DNA of 62,129 nt, the filler included, from Diploschistes diacapsis (lineage: Eukaryota), in the NCBI GenBank assembly GCA_023645945.1. It is 10 parts of 10 records of this genome, joined end to end, with 100 filler letters (N's around TTAATTAATTAA, not from the genome) between each part and the next. Parts side by side here need not be neighbours in the genome. Positions count along the whole stretch, not along the records: positions 1 to 26,347 come from JALAIB010000182.1; 9 more parts are not named here. The stretch is one strand, 5' to 3'. The position numbers and the translations under genes are program-made. Positions 10,761 to 34,335 of this stretch are shown here, piece by piece; position 1 is the stretch's first letter; each line of letters starts with the position of its first letter. The notes under the pieces are model-generated. The model did not search any database. It saw only the letters and a list, made by a program, of their open reading frames with translations, and was not told the DNA's origin.

Positions 10761-13700
10761 TTACTCTTCATCCTCTTCGTCCTCGTCTTCGTCCTCGTCC
10801 ATGCCCTCCGCCGCCGTGACCGTAAACTCCTGCTCCTGGTCCACGCCCACGTAACTATCCGAAATCAAAAAGAGCTTCAGATCCTGCTTCCCAGGCTCCG
10901 GCACCACATACTCCAGCTTGACCTCCAGCTTCGCGCCAAAGCTAACCTTCTTGATAGCCAGCAACGAGGTCCCGCCACCGACAACCAGCCACCAGTTCTC
11001 CATCTTCTTGACGGGGAAGTACGGCGCCTCGACCGTCGTGTCCGGCTCCTCCTCGTCGTCCTCGTCAACCTCTCGCTGGATCTTGACTTTCAGGTAGGAA
11101 GGCGTGCCGGCCGTGACCTCGTCCGGCTCCAGCACTTCGAACTCCATGTCCACGCTCGGGTACTTGTTCGTGAATTCGGCAGCCTGCACGAGCTGCTTTT
11201 TATCGAACCGGAGCGCCTTGACCATGGCGGCGGACTGCTTGCCGGACATGGCTTCTATGAAGTCAAAGACGTCGTTGATACCTGCTTTCTGCGCCGCTGC
11301 GATGGCTTCGGGGGTGAAGTGCGGGATTTGCTTGAGGGGGCTGTCGCGGTCCCACATTGCTTGTACGATCATCTGGCACACCTCCATGGCGCTTGTGGCG
11401 CTTTGAAGATGACCTTCTGAGGAGAGCACGTCGACACAGCCACTGAGCAGGGTGATAATCTTCGAGAGGATCACTTCTTGGTCTTTGACAAGATCGACCG
11501 GGAGGTCTAGACGGGAGAAGTGGGCTTGTAGGAGGATGAAGGCTTTGAAATGGGGAGATTCAAAGGCCACCTGAGCTAGCTTAACGGGTAGCCGGTCGTA
11601 GATTCGCTTTAGCAGGCCGTCTTCGTGCCGGCGAATTTGGATCGATTCGAATTCCGTGGCAGAGGTGACAATCTCGAGAATTTGCTTCAACTTCGTCTTT
11701 CCTGTCAACGACAATAAGAACGTTTGTATTGTGATGTATGAGATGTTGTAGTATGCTGCTATCATTGCGGCGTTGAGCGGCGTAATCGTATCGTCTTCCT
11801 CGTCGAGTTCGATCAGCTTAGCTTCCATCAAGTCCTTCAGTGTATTCTCGACAAGCTCGGAGAGGTGTGCGCTGAGTCCCTCGTGCGAAACGTCAACCAA
11901 ACCGTAGTAGCTGGGATTTGCTAATAGCCTCCTATAGAAGTAGGTGTACGTGGCCCAATCCACAGCATCCTGAGTCGAACCAATGACTTTTGTGCTTATC
12001 TCAGACACGAAAGCATCGTGCAGGTACACCTGCAGATGACTCTCTATAGGCAAAGCCTCGTTCAGAAACTTCTTGTAATAATCCCGCTTGACTTGAGGGA
12101 CCATCAATACGCCACGGCTGGATGTGTCTTCCACCCTGTTTGCTTTGCCAAACATCTGGAGTATTTCGCTAATAGGGTAATCGATGTACCGATGCTCTCG
12201 GCCTTCGAAAAATTGAGTGTTCATGATAATGACGAGATGTGCTGTGACGTCGAGTTCCCAACACACATCTCTAGACGCGACCATTACTTGGATTGCTCCA
12301 ATGCTGTAAAGATGCGAGACAATGCGCTTGTCGCTATTGCTCAGGGCCTCGTGGTAATAGCCAATGCCGTGAGAGATTGATTCAGCCAGAGCAAGCTCCT
12401 GGACTCGATCGAGCAAAGGCTGGATCTCCTCGATGTTTGCGTGCAGAAAGCGGTCCTCATCATCGTCGGCAATGCATGCGGACAGAAGATCTGCAGTTGA
12501 TGATCGAACTTGCTTTCTCGTGGGAACAAACACGATTGCTGGCTTATCTGGAGACATTTGCACGAGGTTCATGTAAGTCGGCCGGGCCATTGCAAGCATG
12601 AGCGATGGAAAGTGCGGTATCGAGAAAGACTGTATATGGAGATCAATAGGGGTGGAGCGAACATGGGGACTGAAGTTATAGATCGTATGTTTTGATGCTC
12701 CTATCCACTCTCCCAAGTCTCGAGCATTAGATAGAGGCACACCGAGGCCAATGATGCGCATTCCATTCTCTGTTTGTAAAGAAATGTAATGCATTCTCGA
12801 AACTATTACCTCGTACGTGAAGCCTCCTTGGCCACCGAGCATGTGAAGCTCGTCGGCAATGAAAACCTTCACAGTCTGAACATTCTTCCGCCGCTGCCAT
12901 TGTTTGGACAAGACATCCCACTGCGGTGGGGTAGCAAGCACAAGATCGCCTTGCTCGAGAATTTTTAGATCTGTCGTGATGTCGCCTGTCAATTTCACAA
13001 TACTCTTGCCTCCGCCCAATTGACCGAATCGTTTGCTCCAATCCGCATGTTTTTGATCAACAACTTCTTGAAAAGGAGCGATGTAGATAGCTCGGCCCTG
13101 AGCTCCAGAGGCCCAATGCCTCAACATCGCGAATTCCGCACACACGGTCTTGCCGCTGCCGGTTGAAGCGCCGATGAAGACATTATCGTCCGTAGAGAAA
13201 AGAGAGTTGAAAGTCTGCGTCTGAACTTTGTTAAAGGTGGCGAAGTCAGTATACAGCTTTTGGAAGTCTGGTCGTTTTAGCGCTGCTACCGACAGAGGCT
13301 GAAGATCAAGGAGTTGTGTATGAGCAGGAAATTTCTGAGGCAGAATGAGCTTCTGGAAGGAGAGCGTGACTCGAGTCTCAGAGTGCATCCACCTATCAGA
13401 GACTAGAGACACGAAGTAATGTGGCGGTTTAGGCTCTGCCATTGGTACTGTGAACTCGACGAGATGCTCGTTCATCTCAGCCGTTGCGTAGTCGCCTCGA
13501 AGCATGAATTGATCGCGATAAAGAATCTCTTCACCATCGCAATCTTCTACGAGAATCCAAAAATTTTCTGCTCTGCCATGTATCTCATTATCCCATTCGA
13601 ACGTGGGTGTGATTGTCAATTCGACTCGTAACATGGATCTCGTTATTGGTTGGACCTGCGCCTGGATATCTAGTCTTGGGAACTTTGCCACAAGGTTACA

Positions 13701-16700
13701 GACAGTCTTGCCAGCTCTAGGCATACCAAGCAACTCTCCCATTCGAGGAGGATCAAGGTCGAAGTAGCTTGACCAGGGCACGTTGATCTTCTCAGCTCTC
13801 TGCATTATGTCCTTGGGACACATCGAGAATTGTCGCAGAGGCGTCATGATGGGCCACATTCGCTTTTCAGCCATTTTGCAAAGATCCAATGCAGTCTTTG
13901 CGACAGACGACCATCCTTTCTCCAAAGCAATCTCAAAAATGGCACGTAATATTCGCCCGGCTGATTGTGTGACGTATACCAGATCAGCCATTAATGCCAG
14001 ACCCTCGAGCTTGAGTCGTGATATGTATGCCTGAAGGAGAACGTTGATTTTCGCGTGCGGCTCCTCAACGCTTTCCTTGACCGGAATAGGAACACGACCG
14101 AGAAGTTTCTGTAGCTCCACTTTTTCGTCCTGGCGTACAGGAATATACTTGAACTCGTCACTAAGCGCGAATATCCTAAACAGTTCGATGGTCGAGGTCA
14201 TGGGTTGGATGTGGTGATTGTAGGTCGACATGCTGGAATGGGTGATGTAGTAGTGCGAAGCGATTCGGCCCAAATCTGTAGAACGGATAGTACCTTTCTT
14301 CTCATCGTATTTAACAAGACCGCATTTATGAAGCACAGTCGCAGCCGAATGGATGAGATCGACTCTTTTTTGCTCAAGAGCATCATCTTCTTCGTAGTCG
14401 GCTCCAACGCTATACAAGCCAGGCGAACGAAGCATTCGTACAAATAGATAAGTGTATCCAAGCCATTCGACCCCTTCGGTGCGCGAACGTATGTTGCCAA
14501 GTACAACCTCTGCATTGAGGTTGTCCGCCAGCTTACCAACAAGTTGACTTTCTATTGGTAGCTGTTGGTTTAGCAAGGAAAGATAGTACTGAATCTCAGA
14601 CTGCGTCGTGATTATTATACCTTCACCATATGTGTCATATTGAGGACGACCAGCGCGCCCTAGCATCTGCAGAACGTCTTGAGGGCTAAGCTCAACCCAA
14701 CTTCCTTTTTCTGGAGAATAGACCTGCGTTCCCTTGATAACGACAGCATGAGCTGGGAGATTGACGCCCCATGCAAGAGTAGCCGTGCAAACGAGTACCT
14801 GGATCATGCCTTCCGAGAAGAGTTCTTCGACTGATGTCCTATCAGGTCGGCTCATTCCAGCATGATGGATCCCAAACCCGTAAGGTAGTAGATCCTTGAG
14901 ATCGCGATCTTGCACGTTTTGGGCTTCTTCGTTAAGCACTTCACGACTCGCGGCATCGCTTCTCAAGATCTGGCCAATAGTCTCAAGTTCAAGAGCCTTA
15001 TCCCTTATATACTTAGCGGTCTTTGCAGTCTCTTTTCGCGAATGAACGAATATAAGGAGCTGCTGCTTGTTCGTGCCAACTTGTTCTATGACCTTGGTGT
15101 AACAGACGTCGTTCATCGTCTTGAGTTGCTTAATCGGCTTTCTATCTGTGACCCCAATGAATTCTTGTCGAAGCGGACAAGGACGATAGGAGCTGTCGAA
15201 ATGGAACAAGCCTTTCTGAGGATCGACTCGAAGGAAGCTTGCAACATCGCGGTAGTTAGGAAGTGTAGCACTGAGCCCAACAAGGCGGACAGGATCTCCT
15301 GTTTTTTCAATCTTGCGTATTGTTCGACTAACGATGCTTTCCAGGACCGGACCTCGATCGTCATGGAGCAGATGGATTTCGTCGATGCATATCAAACGCA
15401 CCAGATTTGTGTAGCTTAAGTCTGTCGCTTTGCGGGTGATTACGTCCCATTTCTCCGGGGTAGTGACAATAATTTGGGTATCAGCAATTTGCTGTTTGGT
15501 AAGTTGTCGGTCGCCCGTAAGTTCTGATACCCTGATCCCGTAGGATTCAAGACGCTTGCCAAAGTTCCCTACCTGTTCTTGAACCAATGCTTTCAATGGG
15601 GCAATGTAAACTATCTTGAAATCGTCGAGCATAATCTCGCCTGTTTCTGGGTTTCGATGCTTACCAATTTCTCGTAGCATTGCAAGCATCGCGACATTGG
15701 TCTTTCCCGAACCAGTTGGTGCACATATCAGTAAATTACCATCGTCGTTGAAAGCAGAATCGTAACAAGACGTTTGAATTCGGTTGAGCTTTGAAGCTGA
15801 ACCAAACCCAGGGCGCGCCCATTCTGGCAATTCAGAAGAAGACATAAGAGCTTTGTCGTCGGCGTTCTTGTGCGATTTTGGTGCAGGGACGTGGATTTCT
15901 TCGTACCCTTTGAATGACCTTTTAGTGGAGCCTTGAGGAAGTTTGACATTGGGATTTGTCATAAGATGATTGCCTTGGTCGAAAACCAGGTTCTCCAGAT
16001 TAATTAACTTCTTAGGCAATAAACTTCCAAGACGGTTCCCCTCTTCCTTGACCTTTGGCTCCTCCTTCTCCGGCATACTTATATCCATCAAGTCAAGCTT
16101 CATCTTTTTGCTAGCTCTGGCGGTATCGCTTTCCTCGCGGCCATACAACTCGTTAACTACAGTCCTTTGGCCCGCGGCAACCAACTCCTGTTCGAGATCC
16201 GCTCGCTCCTGTGAACCTTCCGGCAACCGTCGCCATCGAGTAACAAAAACGACTTTGCTTCGGTTCACCACAAGCAGCCTGACAATCTCGTTATGTTCGT
16301 AGTCAAATAGCTCCATGAGATCGTTTTCGACTTCCCGTGTGCCGTACTCTGCATTCTCCAGTATTTCCAGTGCTTTTTGTGTTTTTGACTGCTGCTCATG
16401 AGGATCAAAGTAGACTGATCCAATCTTTCTCTGCAACCAGTAGGCATCTATATCCCTTGCAGAGAGTGCATAAACCCGGTCTTTCTCGCGGTCTTGTATT
16501 CGTGTAGATACGCCGCCATCAATTATCATCTCATCGTCTTCGGACGCAATGGATTCGTCCCCAGGCTTTCGTGTATCGCCGTCTCTGAATTCTTCATCAG
16601 CGTCAGACTCGCTATCCTCATCTCGAACTTCGTTGTCCCGGGCGATCCCGTCTTCGTCCTCGTTCTCCGAATCATCAAAAACAACAGCGACACCTTGTTT

Positions 16701-17330
16701 CTCATCCAAGGCTTCTTCTTCGCCGTTCCCTGTACCGTCCATGTCTTCATCCTGGGCATCGTAGTCGGTAATCTTCTTTCCCAGATTTACGAGCTCGTTG
16801 AAATGCTTCGAGTTCATAGATATCCCGAGAAGATCATCTATCTCTTTCTTTTTGTCAAAGTCCTTCATGTTCTCATCCTTGAGGTATTCCAGTACGGCAT
16901 CGGCCGCGCTGCGAACCACTTCATGTGGTACGTCGCCCAAGCTGTTCGCTGTTTTCGAAAGGATATGGTTGTAAATTTCCCGAGTCGCTGGCGTCCTTGG
17001 CTTATATCGCAGACCTTCGACAAACGAATCTGCCGTCGAAAAGGCTTGTGTGGGTTCTCTCTTCCTCTTCCTCTCTCGCTCTAGTACATCCGCCCCTTCC
17101 CGAATATCGCCGCGCTCAACGTCCGCTCCTGGCCGTTTCTTTCTCGTTTCATCAACCTTTACGCGACTGGCGCGCATACCCATATCTCTGACGTTGATGC
17201 GCCCAGCGAGGGACTCGGGATCTCCTGTCGCCTCATCTGTGCGTCGAGTAACGAATCGGCGGTCATGCTGGAGGACCAGATTCGACATCGCCGAATACTT
17301 GTATTGCGAGACATTGTTGGGGTCCGCCAT
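10761..17330 (-). CDS. BRR2: U5 snRNP 200-kDa Ski2-like RNA helicase Brr2
   Basis: 2189-aa intronless ORF with the N-terminal QYKYSAMSNLVL and two helicase cassettes (APTGSGKT/DEIH and STGSGKT/DELH), each followed by a Sec63 domain. Confidence 0.98.
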   Translation of the reverse strand: MADPNNVSQYKYSAMSNLVLQHDRRFVTRRTDEATGDPESLAGRINVRDMGMRASRVKVDETRKKRPGADVERGDIREGADVLERERKRKREPTQAFSTADSFVEGLRYKPRTPATREIYNHILSKTANSLGDVPHEVVRSAADAVLEYLKDENMKDFDKKKEIDDLLGISMNSKHFNELVNLGKKITDYDAQDEDMDGTGNGEEEALDEKQGVAVVFDDSENEDEDGIARDNEVRDEDSESDADEEFRDGDTRKPGDESIASEDDEMIIDGGVSTRIQDREKDRVYALSARDIDAYWLQRKIGSVYFDPHEQQSKTQKALEILENAEYGTREVENDLMELFDYEHNEIVRLLVVNRSKVVFVTRWRRLPEGSQERADLEQELVAAGQRTVVNELYGREESDTARASKKMKLDLMDISMPEKEEPKVKEEGNRLGSLLPKKLINLENLVFDQGNHLMTNPNVKLPQGSTKRSFKGYEEIHVPAPKSHKNADDKALMSSSELPEWARPGFGSASKLNRIQTSCYDSAFNDDGNLLICAPTGSGKTNVAMLAMLREIGKHRNPETGEIMLDDFKIVYIAPLKALVQEQVGNFGKRLESYGIRVSELTGDRQLTKQQIADTQIIVTTPEKWDVITRKATDLSYTNLVRLICIDEIHLLHDDRGPVLESIVSRTIRKIEKTGDPVRLVGLSATLPNYRDVASFLRVDPQKGLFHFDSSYRPCPLRQEFIGVTDRKPIKQLKTMNDVCYTKVIEQVGTNKQQLLIFVHSRKETAKTAKYIRDKALELETIGQILRSDAASREVLNEEAQNVQDRDLKDLLPYGFGIHHAGMSRPDRTSVEELFSEGMIQVLVCTATLAWGVNLPAHAVVIKGTQVYSPEKGSWVELSPQDVLQMLGRAGRPQYDTYGEGIIITTQSEIQYYLSLLNQQLPIESQLVGKLADNLNAEVVLGNIRSRTEGVEWLGYTYLFVRMLRSPGLYSVGADYEEDDALEQKRVDLIHSAATVLHKCGLVKYDEKKGTIRSTDLGRIASHYYITHSSMSTYNHHIQPMTSTIELFRIFALSDEFKYIPVRQDEKVELQKLLGRVPIPVKESVEEPHAKINVLLQAYISRLKLEGLALMADLVYVTQSAGRILRAIFEIALEKGWSSVAKTALDLCKMAEKRMWPIMTPLRQFSMCPKDIMQRAEKINVPWSSYFDLDPPRMGELLGMPRAGKTVCNLVAKFPRLDIQAQVQPITRSMLRVELTITPTFEWDNEIHGRAENFWILVEDCDGEEILYRDQFMLRGDYATAEMNEHLVEFTVPMAEPKPPHYFVSLVSDRWMHSETRVTLSFQKLILPQKFPAHTQLLDLQPLSVAALKRPDFQKLYTDFATFNKVQTQTFNSLFSTDDNVFIGASTGSGKTVCAEFAMLRHWASGAQGRAIYIAPFQEVVDQKHADWSKRFGQLGGGKSIVKLTGDITTDLKILEQGDLVLATPPQWDVLSKQWQRRKNVQTVKVFIADELHMLGGQGGFTYEVIVSRMHYISLQTENGMRIIGLGVPLSNARDLGEWIGASKHTIYNFSPHVRSTPIDLHIQSFSIPHFPSLMLAMARPTYMNLVQMSPDKPAIVFVPTRKQVRSSTADLLSACIADDDEDRFLHANIEEIQPLLDRVQELALAESISHGIGYYHEALSNSDKRIVSHLYSIGAIQVMVASRDVCWELDVTAHLVIIMNTQFFEGREHRYIDYPISEILQMFGKANRVEDTSSRGVLMVPQVKRDYYKKFLNEALPIESHLQVYLHDAFVSEISTKVIGSTQDAVDWATYTYFYRRLLANPSYYGLVDVSHEGLSAHLSELVENTLKDLMEAKLIELDEEDDTITPLNAAMIAAYYNISYITIQTFLLSLTGKTKLKQILEIVTSATEFESIQIRRHEDGLLKRIYDRLPVKLAQVAFESPHFKAFILLQAHFSRLDLPVDLVKDQEVILSKIITLLSGCVDVLSSEGHLQSATSAMEVCQMIVQAMWDRDSPLKQIPHFTPEAIAAAQKAGINDVFDFIEAMSGKQSAAMVKALRFDKKQLVQAAEFTNKYPSVDMEFEVLEPDEVTAGTPSYLKVKIQREVDEDDEEEPDTTVEAPYFPVKKMENWWLVVGGGTSLLAIKKVSFGAKLEVKLEYVVPEPGKQDLKLFLISDSYVGVDQEQEFTVTAAEGMDEDEDEDEEDEE

Positions 17331-17783
17331 CTTGCCTGGTTTACTCGGTCTCAGACCTTGGCGTTGAGTATTACCTCGATATTGAGCGCAGACTGGGACA
17401 GCTTCAAAGAAGGAGTCGATGCTCTAAGAAATTTCCCTAGCACCGCCACTTTGAGCGCCACAAGTTGCGGGGAGCTAGGATCGGGTCTGTGGCGGATCCG
17501 TGGCTTAGGTCAGTCTAAGATGCGACTCAGAAGCTCAGAGATGAACAGGATTGAAAAGCTTCTACTGGTATACAATCACACTCAACGTCCCTGTGAGAAA
17601 CGAGGAGCCTCTTTTCACTTCCCTTGCAGGCGATTGCAGTACTCTCACATGTGTGAAGTCGACTTCTCAAAGCCCCTCGGTCCCTTACATTAGTGGCACC
17701 ATCGCCCGCTGACATATTGGACTCATCTAGAATTCGTTGCGTTTGGAATTCCAAGGATTGGTCGCGATTGGTTTTAAAGAAAC

Positions 17784-19629: not shown

Positions 19630-21274
19630 TTACATCTCAACCAACTGCCCCAATCGGCCCTCGATAGCTTCGCGACCCTCGAGAGTCTTCCACACCTCGT
19701 GCGGCGCTTTTTTTACAACATCCCAGGCAATCAAGTTCTCCGTGATCTTGGTCAGCTGCTGCTGTTTATCGGCCCAATCTTTGTTGCTTCTGTAAAGAAT
19801 TCCAGAGCTCACAACGACTAACGCAGTATCTTTATCTTGGATATTTCTCGCTTGCGTAATCTCCGTCTTCGTTAGTGACGTTGCAACCAGGTTTTCCTGC
19901 AGCTTAGATTTGATGAATTTGCCACTTTGATCCGCCGATCTTCCATACACACGATCCTCGCGGGTTCGCCCGCGGAAGAGGGCGCCCATCAGGCGTTGAA
20001 GTCCAAGAGGCGAGATGATACCCCACGCCCATAGCAGAAAGCCATGAGTGGGTTCTCCGATTTTCCAAAGTAGATCCTCGTGAAGGGGGTCAATCATAAG
20101 AAGGGCTTTAACGTATCCACGGTTGCGGCTTGAGAATATCCTAGAGTGGATGCTACCTATACCAGCCGACACGAGAATCCATGGACCCTCTTCACCTGCC
20201 TGTGCCAAGGATTCCATAAGGGCTTCGACAGACATGCCAGCCGAGTGAGGTGACGGAGCATTATCCGAGAAGGCCAACCCAGGGCGATCCCAGTAGCAGT
20301 ATCGGGCAATCGTGCCGTTCTTGTATGCATTGTCAAAGAATGGCTCCATGGTACCCTCGTAGGGGTATTCGCCAGCTTCGACTAGTACAGTTGGGAATCC
20401 CTGTTCTGCGTACGTTGCATTGCCGATGCACTGCACGTGAACCTGGTATTTCCCATCATCGACGTACCATCGCTTGCCGGGAGCCTCCAGCGACGCATCA
20501 CGCGCTCTGAGGACAAGAGTCGCAGTCAAAAGTACCGTCACAATGATGATGACGACCATGATGATCGTGTAAGCAAAAACTCCGCACCATTCCCTTAACG
20601 ATCGTCTCGTCTCGCGTCTGCCTGTAAGACGCTCTTCTTCCTCGGATTTACCCCATGCAACGATCCTGTCTGTCATGACGCTATATCCAGCGATTGCTGT
20701 GGCCCACACCACAGAAGCGATACCGACCCATCCCTCCTCCAATCGCAATTGAGGTATCGAGACAATCATGATCATGTCAACCAGAAGTAGCACAGCGGTC
20801 AACATGCTTGTGACTTCTAGTGCTTTTGATGGGATTGAGAAAAAAAGTATCGCAACGAGAAGATTGCCAAGGGTAAGCGTGGTGTAGGATACGTCGAAGA
20901 ATCCGGATCCTCTGGAATGCATACCCGGTGGACTGACGAAGATTGAAACCAACAGTAGTACCCACCAAAGAGAAGTGACAACAAGCAAGAGGATGGCGAA
21001 GTAACGAACGGCTCGGACGCTCCAAAGGTTGTATGGTGTAACCTGCATGAGAATTTAGCATCAATACTCCAACTTATTGAGCGTTGACTCTTACAGCTGG
21101 GTCATCGGGGTCTAAGTAGCCGTCATTTCGCGAAGATGGGAGAAGCCTCGTCCTTTCGTCTGCATCTTGACTTCGACGCTCATGTGCATTGTGACTACCC
21201 TCAGCATGGCGTTGTCCATCTTCGTCTACTGCATTGTCTCGTTTCGAATCCCTGGTGCCCCAAAGTGAGACCAT
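19630..21274 (-). CDS. Integral membrane protein with C-terminal alpha/beta-hydrolase-like domain (2 exons)
   Basis: Exon 1 MVSLWG...LDPDDPA joined by a GTAAGA..CAG intron to VTPYNLW. About 5 hydrophobic helices, then RYCYWDRPGLAFSDNAPSP and ILVSAGIG, where the nucleophile elbow looks degenerate. Confidence 0.85.
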
Positions 21275-21673
21275 GGTGATTAAGAATTTAACAAGCCAGA
21301 AGACCCGAGCTTAATCAGAAAGACTCTGAAGAAGGAATTGCTGTCCCAGATGAGTTGAAACACAGAGCTCATGTGCTATAAGCGTAGATGCCTTCCGAAA
21401 GATCCAGATCAACTTCAGCTTCACAGTTCACGACTAACTCAAGAAAATAACTGGTTTAGGATAATGAAGCGAGGATAGGGAGTTGAAAACCAAGAGAGAT
21501 GAAGCAGAGTTAGCAGTCTATGATCACACAGGAAGCATCAACCCGTGTAGCCATGATTTTACCTTAGACGTAATGGTGATGGGGTGGGGAATGCACGTGG
21601 TGGTGGTCAGCCCAGCCCTGGATGTATTACACCAACAACCTCATAGCTTCAAAGCAATCAAAAAAAATACTTC

Positions 21674-21678
21674 AAAAA
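21674..21678 (-). terminator. RNA polymerase III terminator (T5; second T-run at ~21660-21667)
   Basis: TTTTT 6 nt downstream of the tRNA discriminator base on the transcribed strand. Confidence 0.8.
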
Positions 21679-21719
21679 CAGAGACTCTCCTGCTGGGAAT
21701 CGAACCCAGGTCTCCCGCG

Positions 21720-21727
21720 GTTTGTTA
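21720..21727 (-). other. Canonical tRNA intron at position 37/38 (8 nt, TAACAAAC)
   Basis: Insert one base 3' of anticodon GTC. Its removal restores the 7-nt loop and the TCCGC/GCGGG stem. Confidence 0.85.
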
Positions 21728-21740
21728 TGACAAGCGGAAA

Positions 21741-21789
21741 CTACATCTCGTTAGATGTTTTCCCAAGAATACCATTTGATTTGACTTAC
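21741..21789 (-). other. Spliceosomal (U2-type)-like intron inside tRNA-Asp, between nt 24 and 25
   Basis: GTAAGTCAAATCAAATGGTATTCTTGGGAAAACATCTAACGAGATGTAG: consensus donor GTAAGT, branch CTAAC, acceptor TAG, 49 nt. Confidence 0.85.
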
Positions 21790-22412
21790 TCATGACCACT
21801 AGACCACAGAAGATGGTGTGAGACTTCAAAGGGATGTGCATAAGCCTTGTATGTGTATACCACCACCACCACCAGCCCATGGCCTTTGGCAATACCAAGT
21901 GGAATAAGGAAGTGCCTCCCTACCGTCATCTAGATGTGCATAATATCTGAACTTCAGCCCACAGCATGCATTGGTTGCCGACAGTTACTTGACTCAAATC
22001 ATACGGAGACCAGGTATGTTTAAAATCTACTATTCCCATATTCGTCCCCAGGCATGAAGAGCCTGACAGGAGGAACATTGAGTTATGAGTCAAATACGAC
22101 ATGACTTAGCTTGAATATGTAGTTCAGGGGAGGGCGGAGATAAAGCCAGGAAGTGGATAGATGATTAAAAGGTAAACCATTAGTTTCATGGGAAAGCCAT
22201 TCTTGTCTGCCTCCACTTCGCCACACCTTCATAAAGACCAACTTTGCCTCCATTCTTCTGCTATCCCTTATTTTGCTGGAGCATTGTACAAAATCGCGCA
22301 AATTATGCATGCCTTGACAAAAGATTGAGCGCCTGTTGCTCTTCCTCTCTCCATTTAATTACTAATCGGAGGAAATCTGCTCTCTCATCCTTTCCACTAT
22401 TCAGCGGCACGT

Positions 22413-24343
22413 TTACTGCTCAGCAGCAGCCGAAGACCGCGTGGTCCTCTTCTGCACCTCGCTCTGAACCTTTTCGCTCCCCGTGGTCGCCGCCTCAGCA
22501 ACTTTATCCTTCACCACTGATGCCGCCTCCTTTGCCTTGGCCGTGGCCTTCTTCGCGTTGTCCTGAGCTACGGCACTGTTCACACCTACTACGGCGAAGA
22601 GACCGGCGACGACAAGACCAAAGATGGTGACAAGGACGCCAGCGACTTCGGGGACGGTCTTGATAGCCTCCATAGGGTCGTGTTTGGCAACGGCTATGAA
22701 GACTTCAAACTTGTCTTGCACGTAGCGAAGAGGGTCATCCATGAAGTTAAGGTCCAGCGGCGATTTGGGCTTAGGTACCTCCTTGGGCTTGGAGGCGTCC
22801 TTTTCGGCTTGCTCGGCCTTGACCTTGAGATCGTACGTTTCGGCCTTAAGCTTGTCGGCGTCGGCGATGGAGTGACCGATGTAGATGTTATCGAAGAGAA
22901 TGTCGCTTTGCATTGTCCAGATTTCAAAACCAATCTAGGATTTCATTAGTGAGAATTAGAGCGCTGGTGTGAATACTCACAGCGCCCATCGGCTCAAGGT
23001 TAGCAGGTGTTTTGTCCTCGAAGTAATCAGGATTCTTGATCTTTCTTGGGGCCCACACGCCTTTGTATGCTGGGTTATCGATGAAAGGTGCGGTCCACTT
23101 GCCCTTATAGGCGGGGTTCTTCTTGGTGGGCTTCTCCCATTTGCCGCAGCCAGAGGCTTCCTGGCACTTGGGGTTCGGGATGCTAGGTGGGATCCAGTCA
23201 CCGTCCTCCTCATCATCCCAGTCCTCAGGCTTTTGGGCCTCTGGGTCAGGGATAGTGGTTGGCTCATCTTCAAGCCAGTCGTCAGGCTTCTCGGCTTCCT
23301 CGTCGACGATTTCGTATGGAGCGTTCTCGTCCCAGTCTTCCGGCTTCGTCGCGTCTGGGTCGGCGATTTTGGCCTCGTCTACCCAATCTTTAGGCTTCTC
23401 GTCCTTGGCATCGTCAATCTCCGCCGGAGGATTGAAGGCGGGTGAGAAGTCCTCCAAGAGGGTTCCATTCTTGGACGATGCACCGTCGACCTTGATCTCA
23501 AATGTCTGGTCTGGCCGTACAATCAGAGTGTAAAGATGGGTGATATCGTCAATCTTCGCGCTTGGCGGGGACTTGAGATGCTTCTCCTCATACTCGCCAG
23601 TCTTGGGGTTCTTGTGTCTAATGATGAAATGGACCTGTATTTTCGGGTAAGTACTAGCAAGTGGCATGTATTGAAGTTCCTACCTTGTTGGTAGCACCAC
23701 ACTTGTCTGGGCCAAACATGACAATGTAGGGAGATGAGTTCGAAAACTCTTCTGCATGTAGCTGTTTATTGTCCTGGAGAAGCTTCATGTACGCACCGCC
23801 GCACTCGAGGCCATCTAGACCAGAACGTTATCATTGAGCACAACAGGAACTCTGTTCAACCTACTCTGAAGCTTAACTTCGTACTGGACAACCATAGTCT
23901 TGCCATTGTTGTCAATGGTTTTGGGAAATTTGGCGGAAATGGCGTGATGGGCAGCAGCATTCTTGACGATCAAGCCCTTGTCGCCCGCCATGCCTTTCCA
24001 TTTCGTAGGTTCTTCAACTGCCCATTCACCCACGTACGCCCAATCTTCCTCACTCTTTGGGTCATCCTTTTTCGCTTTGGAAACGGTCCACCGAGAATCC
24101 CAATCATCGGTAAACTGCTCGAGAAAAGGAGCTGTTACTTTGGTCGGCTATTCCTCAAATTAGCTACAATCCCCCAGGGTACTATTCATCGAACAGCATG
24201 AAAAAGCTTTTCATAAAACATACCAAGAAGACGGGCTTCTCGACGACAGGTGGAACTGTTGAAGTATCTTCTGCATCTGCTCGCACGCCTCCAAGAAGGA
24301 GCACGGAAGAGCAGATGGCGTTTGCCAAAAGAGCGTAACGCAT
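22413..24343 (-). CDS. CNE1: Calnexin (ER lectin chaperone), 5 exons
   Basis: Signal peptide [35 protein letters not shown]-domain repeats (KPEDWDE, IPNPKC, GKW.AP.I.NP.YKG), [11 protein letters not shown]-terminal TM helix. Confidence 0.96.
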
Positions 24344-28265: not shown

Positions 28266-30143
28266 ATGGCCGCGTCCGGGTTCAGAGGAAGCCTTTCTTC
28301 TGCCCCTAATCTTCAAGTCCCGTATCCGACACGGCCGCCCTCGCCACGCAAGCGGCGAGCAATCCAGCGCTCTTCAGAAGAAGTTGATGGGATAATGTCT
28401 CTTAACGAATATATCCTAAGATCGGACCCGTATAGATTTACATACCCTTACCTGGACCCGGCCCCAATGGGGAAGCGACCTCTATTGCCGGATGATCCTC
28501 TATGGACAAGTTATGGGACCTTAACGAGGATTGCTGAGAATGAGCTTTGAAGTTTTGGAATTGACTGGGTCCAAGTGTTGGTTGCGGACTACCAGAGCAC
28601 TGTCCTTGATCCCAACAGCCCGATCCGATATGTTTTGAGTATAGATTCCAGGTCAGAACTGACACGGTCATGGCCTGATGCTGTTAAAGCCATAAGACAA
28701 GCGTTAGTCCAAGCCAACTTCGGTCATATAGCAGTGGAGCTTCTGAACGAAAGAGAAGTGTTCGTTTTGCGAGCATTCACATTTCCCGACGAAGGAGTAG
28801 GTTCAGGGGTGGATAAGATGTGGAAGAAAATCTATCCCGGCATTCTCAATATCCTGCAAACTAATCTGGAGAATTCCGATGCACGTTGGAGCTCGCTGAC
28901 TGCTTTTCTCTGTGGGCCGGAAGAGGTCAAGTCAAAACCCACCGTAGTTGTAACCATCGATGGTACAATTATCGGCCGCGCCAACGCAAATTGGGCTCAA
29001 CTTACACTACAGATCCAGAGCGTGCTGACAAAGAATGATTTGCAAGACTGGGAGGTTGAATTTGCCTATGGAAAGGTCTCGTTCTCAAGAGCAGTACCTA
29101 TCATGAGTACCAGGAATGCTGGAGATAGCCTGGGCGTGGTTGATACCAAGTTCACTGGTAGTATGGGTGGTTTTATCGGCCTCAGTACTGTTTCTAACAC
29201 GCAGATGCGTTGGTGTGCCGTGACCGCGCACCATGTAGTAAGACCGGAGCCAGAAGACACAGTAGAGTTTCAGAGTGACTTGCTCCTGCAGCCGCAAGAC
29301 ACTAGCCATCCTCGTGCGGTCAAGGTGAGAAGCCCAAGTCCAGGAGATTATAAAGATACTTTGGCGCGGCTGATAAAAGAACTCGATATGAATGGCAAGA
29401 CACGAGAAGGTTTGGAAGTCCGGCGAGCCAAGCAACATAGAGGGCTAAGCGCGAGACAAGAGAGTGAAGCCAAAGAGCTTGAGAATGTACAAAGAAAATT
29501 GGAAGAAAAGCTCGCTTGGCTTACCTCCAGAGAGCAGCCTTTCGGCCGAGTTGTTGCTTGCTCGGGGTTGCATGCAAACGAGCGATCGCATATGCTAGAC
29601 TGGGCTTTGGTCGAGGTTGGTAGAGAAAATCTCTGCCAAAATTATCCTATTGCCTTCCATGAACTGCCTGACGATCCCGGTCACGCCCCCCCAGAGGATT
29701 ACCAGTGGGATGGAAGATCTCCCAATAATAAGATCGAGCGAATGAAGCTTGGAGAATGGGTCGTGATGCGTGGGCGAACGTCCGGTACAAGAACTGGCAG
29801 AGTACACAAGCTTCCGGTTGCCGTCAAGAGGTGGGAAATACCAGGCCTGCCAGAAACCTTGGAATGGTTAATCGCTCCCACCCGATCAGCATGGGAGCCA
29901 GCCGAGCCAGCCGCCTTTGCCAAATCTGGAGACTCTGGTGCGTGGGTTTACAACGGGGCTGGCGCAATAGTTGGCCAAGTGATTGCGGAAGGCAAGAGGG
30001 AGGTTGGCAGGGACTTTGGACTGTCAATCGTGACGCCCGTACATGATCTTTTTCAGGATATCGAAGAAGCCACTGGGGCCGAGTTATACCTCCCGATGTT
30101 TGATGAGATGGAGGAAATGGAGGAATTTGGGAGAGAAAGTTAG
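28266..30143 (+). pseudogene. Trypsin-like (PA clan) serine protease-like protein interrupted by one in-frame TGA at 28548-28550
   Basis: ORFs 28266-28550 and 28575-30143 share a frame. Catalytic-triad-like motifs VTAHHV, LDWALV and KSGDSGA are intact. Confidence 0.7.
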
Positions 30144-31344
30144 TTTTTAGTTTGGCGGAATTGGATGTACAGTGCAATCAAGCCGAGGCGAAAAAGGGAA
30201 GAAGCTCTCTAATTCCCCTCTCTGCTTGCAATATTCTCCATCCATCTCCATATGTGAATAAAAGACCACCACCATCCGCTGCCCCCCCCCTTTCCATTCT
30301 ATCCCATTCCACCTCCCATCCAGACCGCCAACCAATCAACCCAGGATNNNNNNNNNNNNNNNNNNNNNNNNNNNNNNNNNNNNNNNNNNNNTTAATTAAT
30401 TAANNNNNNNNNNNNNNNNNNNNNNNNNNNNNNNNNNNNNNNNNNNNGAATATAGATAATTAAGTTGAATTATTATTAAACGCCGAATATTACTTTAATA
30501 ATAGATATAGAAAAATTAAAAAGATTTAGAATATATAATCATTTAACGACGAAATATTAAGTAATATTAGGAAACTTAGAGTCTTAAAAAAGAATCTTTA
30601 ATTAAAAGAGGAAGATAAGGTTTATGTATATACGAATAATTTTAGGACACGTAGATTCTTTAAGAAGTTAAATTACGTTAAAGTCGGATCTTTTTTTATC
30701 GATAAATAACTCGTTATACCGGACGAAATTAAACGAGTTAATTATCGATTTAAATTATTAAAAGACGCGAAAGTTTATTTAATGTTTTATTTTAAGTACC
30801 TCGAATTAGCATACTTAGACACACCGTTACAGGAAATCTTTTATTTTGAATCAGATAACGAAAATGAATAGGAAATCGAAGCAGTGGTATATTATAAAAA
30901 CGATAAATATCTAGTTAAATAAAAAAGCTATTTAGAGTCGGATATAATATAGGAACTTAAAAAAAACATAAAGTATTATAAAACGAAGTTAGCGAAATTT
31001 TATAGCGTTAACGGACCCACTATTAAAGATAATCAAGATTGAGGGTGGAGAGTTTACGGAATATACGTACATCTAATATAAGAATCTCACGGAATCGACG
31101 AAATAGAGGTTTCTTTCTGCGCTATTGGCAGCGTATTATTTCTTAACTCCTAGTTTATTTGCGACGGCGATATGCTCGTTAATAATTGAAGATCCTGCGG
31201 GTTACCCGTGAGCACCATGTTGTTGTTCGGATCGTTAATCGCCTCAGCCTTTTTATTTAACTAATTAGTAAGATATTTGGCCTATTTTATAAATTTCTTT
31301 TCGGCTAGTTTCAGAGTTTTTCGTAGTTTCTGTATCCGGGTTTC

Positions 31345-31507
31345 TGTAAGGCCTGCGGGGTTACACATCTGCCTCGGCTGCCACAGCCACGCACCTACAT
31401 ATAGTGTAATAGGGAAACAGTGCTTCGGGGTTCCTGAAAGCATTGTGTTAGTCTTTTGGCTCAGTGGGATAGCGCTACCCTATTAGGCACTAACCCCCGC
31501 TGTTACA
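31345..31507. mobile_element. Nested solo LTR (163 bp) with 5-bp target-site duplication GTTTC
   Basis: GTTTC|TGTAAG...TGTTACA|GTTTC. TG..CA ends, TGTAA/TTACA inverted termini, and GC-richer than its host. Confidence 0.85.
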
Positions 31508-31880
31508 GTTTCATATTCTATTAGTTGAAAAAAGAGTTTTCGTCTTTTTTCTTCTTTTAATTTTAATTTAGATTTCGTCTGAACGCGTATCTTATCTACA
31601 GCCTTTTAAGATGTCGAGATATAGTTCTTTCGTTCGAGATAAGCATATCTTTCGTAGCGAGAAGAGATGGACAACATGATAATATAGTGATAAGAAACAG
31701 TTTAATAGAAGTAAAAGAAGTTAGCGGTTTTGTTTACTCGAAGGATTTAATTAATAAGTTTGTGGTTATAAGAAGTTGAAGAAGATATCGTTGTTCTATG
31801 ACTTGGGATTTTTTTTTGTTTAGTACTTATGCTTATCTTTCGGCGTTTGTCGGGTCGATAAGGCTGAAGGAGGGGGATAG

Positions 31881-32345
31881 TGTTATGATTTAGGTTACCG
31901 AGTGGTTATCTAGTACGTTATAGCTAGTCGGGTATTTCTTAGTTATTTCTTGTATATAGCCAATTACGGATATTAGATTACGTGGTTAATAAATATTTAG
32001 TGATAGATATTTATTAGGGACAGATCTGCCTGGATAGTTATTTGTTAGTAATAGTTTTGTCGTAATAGTTCGGTTGTCGGTAATTAACTATCGTTTTGGA
32101 TTATATAGGAACACCGTTATGGTTCTTTTGAGTTGGGGCGTGTTTATTTTTATAAATATCTTTAGCGATTGTTCGAGATCAATCTATATTCGTTATTTTT
32201 TATTATTAGATAGTAATCTTTTTAGAGATTAGTATAGATTTATACTCGATCTATTTCTTCTCCTTCCATACTCCTCTTCTACCAGAGACCAAACTTACCT
32301 TGATCAATACCTCGTGTCCACGTTGTAGAGATAGAGATCATAACA
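31881..32345 (+). repeat. 3' LTR of the Gypsy element (465 bp)
   Basis: Starts TGTTATGAT right after the PPT and ends ATCATAACA, a perfect 9-bp inverted terminus. Confidence 0.85.
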
Positions 32346-32440
32346 GTATTACCGTTTGATTACGTAGTTATTATCGACGCTATTAATATCCAGATCGATA
32401 ATATTTTATCCGTTAATATCGATTACGATAAATAACTTAA

Positions 32441-32737
32441 TGAGAAATATCAGCCCAGGCGTGCCAAGCCACCGGGGTCACATGACGGCCGGGTCACATT
32501 ACGGGTACCAACCGTGCCGAGGATGTTAGGGGGTGGCTCTGTAGGCGGGTAGAACCCGAACCCCGTAGGGCTGGCACTTACACATTATTTATTCCTGCCA
32601 CCCTCCCACCTAGATAGTTCTTCTCTAGCTTTTCGAATCGAGACCTTTTACCTGCAGATGCCCAGCTACACGTAATCTCACCGGATCAGGCCCAGCCCCC
32701 CGGTAGTGTAGTATCCCATTCCTGCGCTGGCGTTTCA
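32441..32737. mobile_element. Solo LTR (297 bp) with 5-bp TSD CTTAA
   Basis: CTTAA|TGAGAAA...GTTTCA|CTTAA, a GC-rich island in AT-rich RIP background. Confidence 0.75.
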
Positions 32738-32742
32738 CTTAA

Positions 32743-34335
32743 TAAGTTAATCGATAAGCAATGAAAGTTAAGAAAAAAAAATCATAACATATTTATTCCG
32801 TTAAAAGAAATCTTCTCGACGATCCGACGAGAAACGACGCCGCCGTTTTAACTCAAGAAGCTTATCTGAAAGATATTTATTTTATGATAATAATAATTAT
32901 CGCGCGATGCGCTGTAAACTCGCGAAAAAATTTGAACAGATGGTCATCGTAATAAAAAATAAGAACCGAGAAAAGAAATCCCGAGATATCCGCAACAAAT
33001 AAAAAGACAATAACAAACGCGCCGGTAACGTAAAGAGTTCAGATAATAAAAGTTCAAAGACCGATACTGAACCTAAACCTAAACCTGAATCTTAAATATA
33101 ACTAACCAGTTTATCTGTTTAAGTATTAAACTCCTATTCGAGGTCGACGAATTAAAGTCGGTGAAGAAATACTCTATTTAGATATTAAATCCTATCATCT
33201 AGAATCTTCGACAAATCACAGTATCTTAGAGATTCCTGCTTCCTATGATCGTCCCGAACCAGATGATGGTGGCCGACGATTAATAAAGTTAAAAAAGCAT
33301 TTTTAGATTTCAATACTCTACGTTTAGGATATATTATATTTTCTTTCCGTATTGTCGGAATAAAAGGTTATATAAAGTAGGATTTACGAAATAGTCGTTG
33401 ACGGGATTACGACGCTTAAGACAACGCTGCTATATTACGAAATGTAACGTTTCCACTAAGGACAATCGGTCTTAATCGAAAAGATATTTAAATGAATTAA
33501 CATGCTGAATGATTTCGTCTGTAGGGAATATTGAATAAACGGACGGAAGTTATGGCTGTAAGTTCGGCTTGTTCCGGGAGGTTCACTGGGAGAATCCGGG
33601 AAGTTCACATGAACTTACTGAGGTTCAGCAGTTCAGTTCAGTTCAACTGAACCTTATGGAATCCGGTGGAATCCTGACTAGACCGATCAGGTGTAATGTG
33701 GGTAGTAAGGCTTAGCGAGTCCCGTGGGGTATAAAAGTCTGCACAGTAGGATTACTTCCTAGGACAAGACCTCTAGACTTCAATATATCCATTACGTTGC
33801 CAAACACTTATTAATATTCTTATTAATCGGAGTTTTTATTTCTCGTAATTAAATCTACTGATTAAGGTTTTCCTTAATTCCGGTTCGGGAGTATTATACA
33901 ATACTTTTGTTTTATCCGTTATAGTCGCCATAACTACGTCCGGGCGGGATATATTAATATACGTATATCCGTTTAACTTAAAAATCCGTGTCTCAAAATT
34001 AATCGTTAAATTATGAATATTTAGTTAAGGATTTCCGAAGATGACGTCGTAGATAATTATATCTATTAAATCGAAAATAAGTTTTTTAAGATATTCTAAA
34101 ATCCTGACCATTAACGGTAACGTACGTTTAATAATTTATAAAACGTTACGTGTCGTCACGGTTTCGAATGTGTATTTCTATTTTAATTCGTAATTGTTAT
34201 TTTCAACCGTTGTGTATAAAAAGTTAAAATAACGTTTATAATAATATTTAGATCGATTAATACCCGCACGGCATGTCAATCTAATTTAATCTCGGAAATA
34301 ATTTAAATTCTTTATCGTTTTAGAACCGTTATGCC
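32743..34335. mobile_element. Unclassified RIP-degraded repeat DNA containing an LTR-like GC-richer island (~33557-33900)
   Basis: TpA-rich with no intact ORFs. The island starts TGTAAG, contains TATAAAA and ends TATACA, but has no clear TSD. Confidence 0.5.

Follow-up and report, generated by a model that had tools for sequence, protein, structure and literature searches.

The window, a stretch of 62,129 nucleotides (nt), filler included, from Diploschistes diacapsis, contains on its minus strand a tRNA-Asp(GTC) gene that is interrupted twice: by a 49-nt insert with spliceosomal-type signals in the D stem, and by an 8-nt canonical intron at 37/38. We consider it likely that this is a working nuclear gene of the Pezizomycotina, most likely transcribed by RNA polymerase III (Pol III), the precursor of which needs two unrelated splicing systems. 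The textbook view assigns the removal of eukaryotic tRNA introns solely to the tRNA splicing endonuclease and ligase and confines spliceosomal introns to Pol II transcripts; the known exceptions to the Pol II rule comprise U6, U3, a few other small RNAs and the rDNA of lichens. The parts of the gene are as follows:

21685..21813, minus strand: tRNA-Asp(GTC) gene, 129 nt with both interruptions and 72 nt without them; called by ARAGORN after removal of 21741-21789
21790..21813, minus strand: exon 1, 24 nt, tRNA positions 1-24, with the A-box-like TGGTCTAGTGG inside
21741..21789, minus strand: spliceosomal-type intron in the 3' strand of the D stem, at 24/25; 49 nt, unique boundary
21728..21740, minus strand: exon 2, 13 nt, positions 25-37, comprising the 5' strand of the anticodon stem and the anticodon GTC
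21720..21727, minus strand: canonical tRNA intron TAACAAAC at 37/38, 8 nt; ARAGORN intron call
21685..21719, minus strand: exon 3, 35 nt, positions 38-73, with the discriminator G as its last base and the B box GGTTCGATTCC inside
21660..21678, minus strand: Pol III terminator-like T runs, with T5 at 21674-21678 (6 nt past the discriminator) and T8 at 21660-21667

ARAGORN found no tRNA in the intact 62-kb window, with the intron option either on or off, and Rfam gave no tRNA match on the window at the gathering threshold, nor at E values up to 10. When the 49 nt were cut out by coordinates, ARAGORN reported a tRNA-Asp(gtc) of 72 bases with an 8-nt intron at 37-38; deletion of the 8-nt intron alone produced no sensible call at this locus. 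The first-pass annotation had described a tRNA-Asp with two interruptions and a 13-nt middle exon, and its coordinates and description are correct, as follows from the ARAGORN result after removal, the single B-box match of the window (GGTTCGATTCC at 21696-21706, minus strand, exon 3) and the A-box-like match (TGGTCTAGTGG at 21796-21806, minus strand, exon 1). The acceptor stem is paired at 7/7 positions and the T stem at 5/5, and the D-arm is identical to the commonest D-arm among the insert-free relatives in the matches listed (described below). In a boundary test that required the joined 5' half to carry a D-arm of the 69 insert-free relatives, a T stem of 5/5 and an acceptor stem of 7/7, exactly one solution was obtained for the window insert: 49 nt after position 24, with GT..AG ends. 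Both the anatomy of the gene and the uniqueness of this GT..AG boundary are direct observations.

The genes on either side of the tRNA were identified by Pfam:

22413..24147, minus strand: calnexin/calreticulin-family gene (exons), upstream and co-oriented; PF00262
23815-23864, minus strand: calnexin intron, 50 nt, GTAGGT...TAG; from reading frame and Pfam continuity
23635-23683, minus strand: calnexin intron, 49 nt, GTAGGA...CAG; from reading frame and Pfam continuity
19630..21054, minus strand: DUF2417-family ORF, downstream and co-oriented; PF10329, E value 1.2e-85

The ORFs of the calnexin exons match positions 1-91, 89-131, 130-353 and 351-369 of the PF00262 profile. The tRNA had been described as co-oriented with both flanking genes, and all three do lie on the minus strand. 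The upstream neighbour had been named calnexin; the downstream one had been called a hydrolase, an identity that gave way to DUF2417, the only assignment that Pfam supports. For an ORF encoding thioredoxin reductase, 2.5 kb away, the best matches among named proteins come from Lecanoromycetes and Eurotiomycetes (75-78% identity), and metagenome proteins match it at 82-87%. These matches place the source in the Pezizomycotina, with no close named relative among the proteins compared.

The 49-nt insert carries each of the signals of a spliceosomal intron. Its 5' site is GTAAGT (21784-21789), which fits an extended GTRNGT-like pattern; a branch-like CTAAC lies at 21750-21754, its A (21751) being 10 nt away from the 3' end; and its 3' site is TAG (21741-21743), a YAG. 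The insert contains no T run longer than 2. It falls in the same size class as the two calnexin introns (50 and 49 nt), a small sample. The pattern GTAAGT-N20-50-CTRAY-N4-16-YAG has three matches on both strands of the 62-kb window, versus 0.84 expected from shuffles. An intron finder based on frame-switching ORFs returned 33 groups, many of them false positives, and was not used to derive an intron consensus. As part of the two-splicing-system reading, the assignment of the 49-nt insert to the ordinary U2-type spliceosomal introns appears strongly supported by comparison with related genes. The signals alone would prove no ongoing splicing, since an intron that had been reverse-spliced and copied back would carry them by origin.

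Metagenome contigs were scanned for the anticodon arm and the start of the T loop, with 0-30 nt allowed at 37/38, and at least 112 fungal-type tRNA-Asp loci were found to share the anticodon arm. Flanks of 3 kb were used for 80 loci and of 300 nt for the others. Together with the window, the matches listed comprise 113 entries: in 97 both the 5' half and the 3' end are uninterrupted, 11 contain extra inserts and five could not be modelled (three end at the 3' end of a contig, one at the 5' end of a contig, and L072 has no recognisable 5' exon). The 108 modelled entries represent 78 distinct gene sequences among the matches listed, the window's included, and nine of these 78 carry extra inserts, ten in all and 47-60 nt in length. 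The insert-bearing genes are those of the window, L017, L047, L001 (with two inserts), L006 (identical to L105), L008 (identical to L086), L061, L085 and L097, and the inserts occupy six positions: 14/15 (one insert), 24/25 (two, in the window and L017), 25/26 (one), 58/59 (three), 60/61 (one) and 61/62 (two).

The boundaries of these inserts were enumerated blind to splice signals, by allowing all inserts of 20-124 nt that left a D-arm seen in the 69 insert-free genes, a T stem of 5/5 and an acceptor stem of 7/7. For nine of the ten inserts (eight genes) there is one boundary each, and every one is GT..AG; the L047 insert has three equivalent boundaries, one of which is GT..AG. The 5' sites (n=10) are GTAAGT in six inserts and GTACGA, GTTAGT, GTAGGA and GTCAGT in the others, and CT[AGT]A[CT] is present in 10/10, with its A 9-14 nt from the 3' end. 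As encoded, none of the nine insert-bearing genes is called by ARAGORN (0/9); after GT..AG removal all of them are (9/9), as Asp(gtc) in six cases and under another label in three, because ARAGORN places the 37/38 intron differently in these. By way of control, among the 37/38 introns of the 78 distinct genes listed, one starts with GT and 46 end with AG, and none does both. The recurrence of the inserts in relatives is, like the anatomy, directly observed. The proposal that a spliceosomal-type and a TSEN-type intron share one tRNA gene draws strong support from this comparison, and the two-machinery reading appears to be the best explanation, with ten introns of one class now behind it instead of a single intron.

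Sequence similarity among the inserts is limited. The L017 insert lies at 24/25, the identical site to that of the window's; their identity of 0.61 equals the shuffle maximum, and the two do not align beyond the splice signals, which gives no sign of a common ancestry for the 24/25 intron. The acceptor stems of these two genes differ, and each is paired 7/7. Among the ten inserts, clear alignment is confined to those of L061 and L085, both 52 nt long and located at 58/59. Gap-free identity between them is 75%, which exceeds the value of every one of 200 shuffles (maximum 0.69), and the three splice signals of each are valid. The exon sequences of L061 and L085 agree at 72/72 positions, and similarity between the 100-nt flanks of the two genes is that of shuffled sequence (0.61 and 0.63). 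This is the pattern that would be expected of a maintained, spliced intron in a maintained gene. When the ten inserts were compared by blastn-short with the window and all loci (407 kb), only the inserts themselves, two duplicate loci and chance matches of 12-16 nt were found; the inserts are not copies of one another, and a repeat or introner origin was rejected on the grounds that no copies are present in the 407 kb.

An alternative that takes the splice signals as leftovers is that the gene is dead or dying, an mRNA intron having been reverse-spliced into the abundant tRNA, copied into DNA and recombined into the gene. We regard this as unlikely. It would accord with the minority status of the insert-bearing genes (9/78 distinct genes among the matches listed), with the resemblance of the relative L072 to a 5'-truncated pseudogene and with the want of an alignable homologue of the window insert; it is opposed by the flawless exons of the window gene, with an acceptor stem of 7/7, a T stem of 5/5 and a consensus D-arm, and by the presence of a Pol III terminator in 9/9 insert-bearing genes. 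In L061 and L085, all exon positions and the splice signals have been kept while the flanks have drifted to shuffle level, which also speaks against decay. Furthermore, where the acceptor stems of the window tRNA and its nearest relatives differ, the changes are paired and leave the pairing intact, and any gene conversion from copies that lack the insert would tend to remove it rather than preserve it. A working gene with two introns of different classes continues to be our preferred reading.

The 8-nt intron had been described as canonical, and this description is upheld by its ARAGORN placement at 37-38 and by its pairing with the anticodon region: bases 32-35 of the anticodon loop pair with the intron at 4/4 positions, including U32-A(-3), and the adjacent anticodon-stem pairs are formed at 3/3. 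Among the matches listed, 76 of the 78 distinct related genes have a 37/38 intron (8-28 nt), and base -3 is A in 69 of these 76, which fits the U32 pair. The window intron thus resembles the canonical eukaryotic kind in sitting at 37/38 and in pairing with the anticodon loop, 32 with -3 included. Compared with the canonical 37/38 introns of the relatives listed (range 8-28 nt), it ties for shortest; compared with canonical 37/38 introns elsewhere, it differs in sharing its precursor with a spliceosomal-type intron.

Ectopic, endonuclease-cut tRNA introns of the bulge-helix-bulge kind are recognised by two 3-nt bulges that contain the cut sites, with a 4-bp helix between them. Strict geometry only was scored. 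The 8-nt intron of the window scores 4/4 and 3/3, and the 49-nt insert 3/4, 2/3 and 1/3. A 4/4 helix is present in at least 32 of the 76 canonical introns among the matches listed, and the 4-bp central helix of the strict geometry in 0/10 GT..AG inserts, two of which reach 3/4, at about the chance rate. By these results, the endonuclease is a good candidate for removing the 8-nt intron; for the 49-nt insert it is a poor candidate. They bear directly on the possibility that one machinery removes both, the 49-nt insert being an ectopic bulge-helix-bulge intron cut by the endonuclease. Ectopic and multiple tRNA introns excised by the endonuclease occur in a red alga, as described in PMC3728597. 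We nevertheless judge such an origin highly improbable here: the contrast between the inserts (0/10) and the canonical introns (at least 32/76) counts against it, and a bulge-helix-bulge intron would have no reason to start with GT, to end with AG and to carry CTRAY 9-14 nt upstream in 10/10 cases.

The starts of the A and B boxes of the window gene lie 100 nt apart instead of approximately 44. Both boxes are kept, as is the T5 that follows the gene, and this retention of Pol III signals is again an observation. Among the matches listed, a run of at least five Ts occurs no more than 40 nt downstream in 9/9 insert-bearing genes (median 6 nt) versus 50/85 other entries. The longest T run in any of the ten inserts is 4; runs of this length occur inside three of them (L017, the D-arm insert of L001, and L085), which could weaken read-through by Pol III. 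The avoidance of T runs was rejected as a test of Pol III passage, as it does not discriminate: the two calnexin introns likewise lack long T runs. The inserts at 58/59 (L008/L086, L061 and L085) split the B box after its first seven bases, in the T loop. As a separate observation, the first bases of the 58/59 introns partly replace the part of the B box that is lost.

A Pol III precursor is uncapped, and an uncapped precursor with a 5' exon of just 24 nt plus leader is unusual as a spliceosome substrate. The gene might instead be functional with its intron spliced from a Pol II transcript (read-through from calnexin or a unit of its own), the tRNA being excised by RNase P and RNase Z. Pol II transcripts are the normal substrates of the spliceosome, and the tRNA gene, which has the same orientation as both neighbours, is located approximately 600 nt past the calnexin stop codon. 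We consider this source of the precursor quite unlikely, since the A box, the B box and the immediate T5/T8 terminator are intact, and a gene transcribed by Pol II only would not need the run of five or more Ts that is kept within 40 nt in all nine insert-bearing genes. A Pol II read-through precursor, while possible, is not needed and leaves these conserved terminators unexplained. Pol III is the simpler source of the window precursor, given that the A box, the B box and the T5 are intact and that such T runs follow all nine genes. Neighbours of the metagenome loci, sought by ORFs and Pfam, were found in just two cases, both downstream: the DASH-complex gene Spc34, co-oriented (L001), and a beta-eliminating lyase ORF, convergent (L061). 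As no upstream gene was resolved, the orientation of metagenome neighbours is silent on read-through, and the lone neighbour of L061 says nothing of its upstream side. Nor is Pol II obligatory for splicing, as spliceosomal introns occur in the Pol III-transcribed U6 genes (PMC5855946) and an intron in Pol I rRNA is removed in yeast (PMC8527467).

Under the Pol III reading, the maturation of the window tRNA would proceed in four steps. Pol III would transcribe the gene from the internal A and B boxes and terminate at T5; the spliceosome would take out the 49-nt intron (GTAAGT ... CTAAC ... TAG) in the nucleus; the tRNA body would fold after the 49 nt have been removed; and Sen/TSEN would cut out the 8-nt intron, with tRNA ligase sealing the ends. 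That RNA is made from the locus, that the spliceosome removes the insert and that the two steps occur in this order is what we infer.

The eukaryotic Sen complex measures its cut sites from the tRNA body by a ruler mechanism, according to PMC4090602. The spliceosome probably acts on the window precursor before the endonuclease does, because with 49 nt in the D stem the tRNA body to measure from probably cannot form. In a nearest-neighbour model, the forced cloverleaf of the precursor with the 49-nt insert lies 16.3 kcal/mol above the minimum; the figure is 4.3 once the insert is taken out, and 3.5 for the mature tRNA sequence. The folding argument for an order is weak, as the cloverleaf is not the model minimum even for the mature tRNA. 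In the fold predicted for the full precursor by the same kind of model, the acceptor and T stems form and the D and anticodon stems are absent, and a G/A-rich stretch of the insert is predicted to pair with the first bases of exon 2, which are the 5' strand of the anticodon stem. A 6-bp hairpin is also predicted in the 3' part of the insert (21741-21775, minus strand), with the branch motif CTAAC in its loop. As described in PMC4090602, tRNA splicing in S. cerevisiae is cytoplasmic and takes place on the mitochondrial surface after export; if valid in the window fungus, these compartments would alone set the order of splicing. Any link between tRNA-Asp supply and the activity of the spliceosome would hinge on how many insert-free copies the genome has.

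Spliceosomal introns have precedents in other genes for structural RNAs. Fungal U6 genes, which are transcribed by Pol III, have up to four spliceosomal introns with canonical signals and otherwise unconserved sequence (PMC5855946, which cites Tani and Ohshima 1989 and 1991 and Canzler 2016 for mRNA-type introns in fungal U6). Like U6, the window tRNA gene is a short Pol III structural RNA gene with canonical 5', branch and 3' sites, and the tRNA-Asp inserts as a class share with the U6 introns an otherwise unconserved sequence, varied positions and the occasional presence of several per gene. The host RNA is different: it is a tRNA, the maturation enzymes of which all read the folded body, and its precursor has a second intron of a different class. 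A further difference is that splicing of U6 has been demonstrated in S. pombe, whereas that of the window tRNA is proposed.

Fungal U3 genes also carry spliceosomal introns (PMC5832005), as does the nuclear rDNA of lichen-forming ascomycetes, and one such rDNA intron, of 57 bp, can be removed by yeast from Pol I transcripts (PMC8527467, which cites Bhattacharya 2000 on lichen rDNA introns). The lichen introns and the window insert are alike in that both lie in non-Pol II structural RNA genes of Pezizomycotina and are approximately 50-60 nt long. The rDNA transcripts, however, are made by Pol I and extend over several kilobases, whereas that of the window gene would be a Pol III transcript of approximately 130 nt; in addition, the rDNA transcript has no second, endonuclease-type intron, and the window tRNA has one. 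The features by which ectopic spliceosomal introns are recognised in U6, U3 and rDNA, namely splice signals, unconserved sequence and patchy sites, are all found in the tRNA-Asp class.

Multiple and ectopic tRNA introns of the bulge-helix-bulge kind are described in Cyanidioschyzon merolae, nucleomorphs and archaea (PMC3728597, PMC3978253 and PMC4090602). These tRNAs resemble the window class in having more than one intron, introns in the D- and T-arms and very short internal exons. Their introns form a bulge-helix-bulge and are cut by the endonuclease; the inserts of the window class, in contrast, lack this geometry and have spliceosomal signals in its place. We found no description of a spliceosomal intron in a tRNA gene in the full-text literature searched, which excludes most subscription journals. 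The GT..AG-interrupted tRNA-Asp genes probably represent a real and undescribed way of splitting tRNA genes.

More generally, we lean towards the view that spliceosomal introns are recurrent and selectively maintained in Pol III-transcribed tRNA genes of a group of Pezizomycotina, with several gains at six or more positions of tRNA-Asp; that the spliceosome would act on uncapped nuclear pre-tRNAs of approximately 130-190 nt before they are recognised by the endonuclease; and that standard finders miss such genes. If this is true, the most abundant Pol III product, tRNA, would join the non-Pol II substrates of the spliceosome, and two splicing systems would act on one small RNA in a forced order. 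The window gene would also offer a natural test of how the spliceosome copes with a highly structured RNA that lacks a cap and has a 5' exon of 24 nt. The tRNA-Asp insert class bears on intron gain as a question, for which reverse splicing into abundant RNAs has been put forward as one route. As ARAGORN misses all nine genes and Rfam missed that of the window, tRNA counts for such fungi may be too low.

The search was extended to other isotypes: each of the 10,930 GT..AG candidates that have a branch motif in the window and all loci was removed and ARAGORN applied, with no decoy control. Seventeen junction-spanning calls were obtained, all at tRNA-Asp loci; those at L075 and L099 are regarded as artefacts, as they adjoin genes already shown to be uninterrupted. 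No interrupted tRNA of another isotype was found in the approximately 407 kb by this procedure of GT..AG removal and ARAGORN.

Two of the metagenome loci have unusual structures. At L001 (2923-3112, plus strand), a tRNA-Asp is interrupted three times, by GT..AG inserts of 52 nt after position 25 and of 54 nt after position 61 and by a 12-nt canonical intron at 37/38; the internal exons are 12 and 24 nt long. Spc34, identified by Pfam downstream of this tRNA on the same strand, marks the contig as fungal. At L072 (2580-3058, plus strand), the 3' part of a tRNA-Asp with a 27-nt canonical intron is present, and no 5' exon lies within 400 nt upstream; this is either a truncated pseudogene or a gene with a much longer interruption.

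Other observations concern the surroundings of the tRNA gene in the window. An uninterrupted ORF of 2220 codons (10761-17423, minus strand), 4 kb from the tRNA, is one that by eye we take to resemble the spliceosomal helicase Brr2; its proximity to the tRNA gene is probably a coincidence. The GC content is low at 30001-34000 (0.34-0.38, versus approximately 0.5 elsewhere in the composition profile). A short (CCA)n / (TGG)n run is located at 21860-21875, approximately 50 nt upstream of the 5' end of the tRNA.
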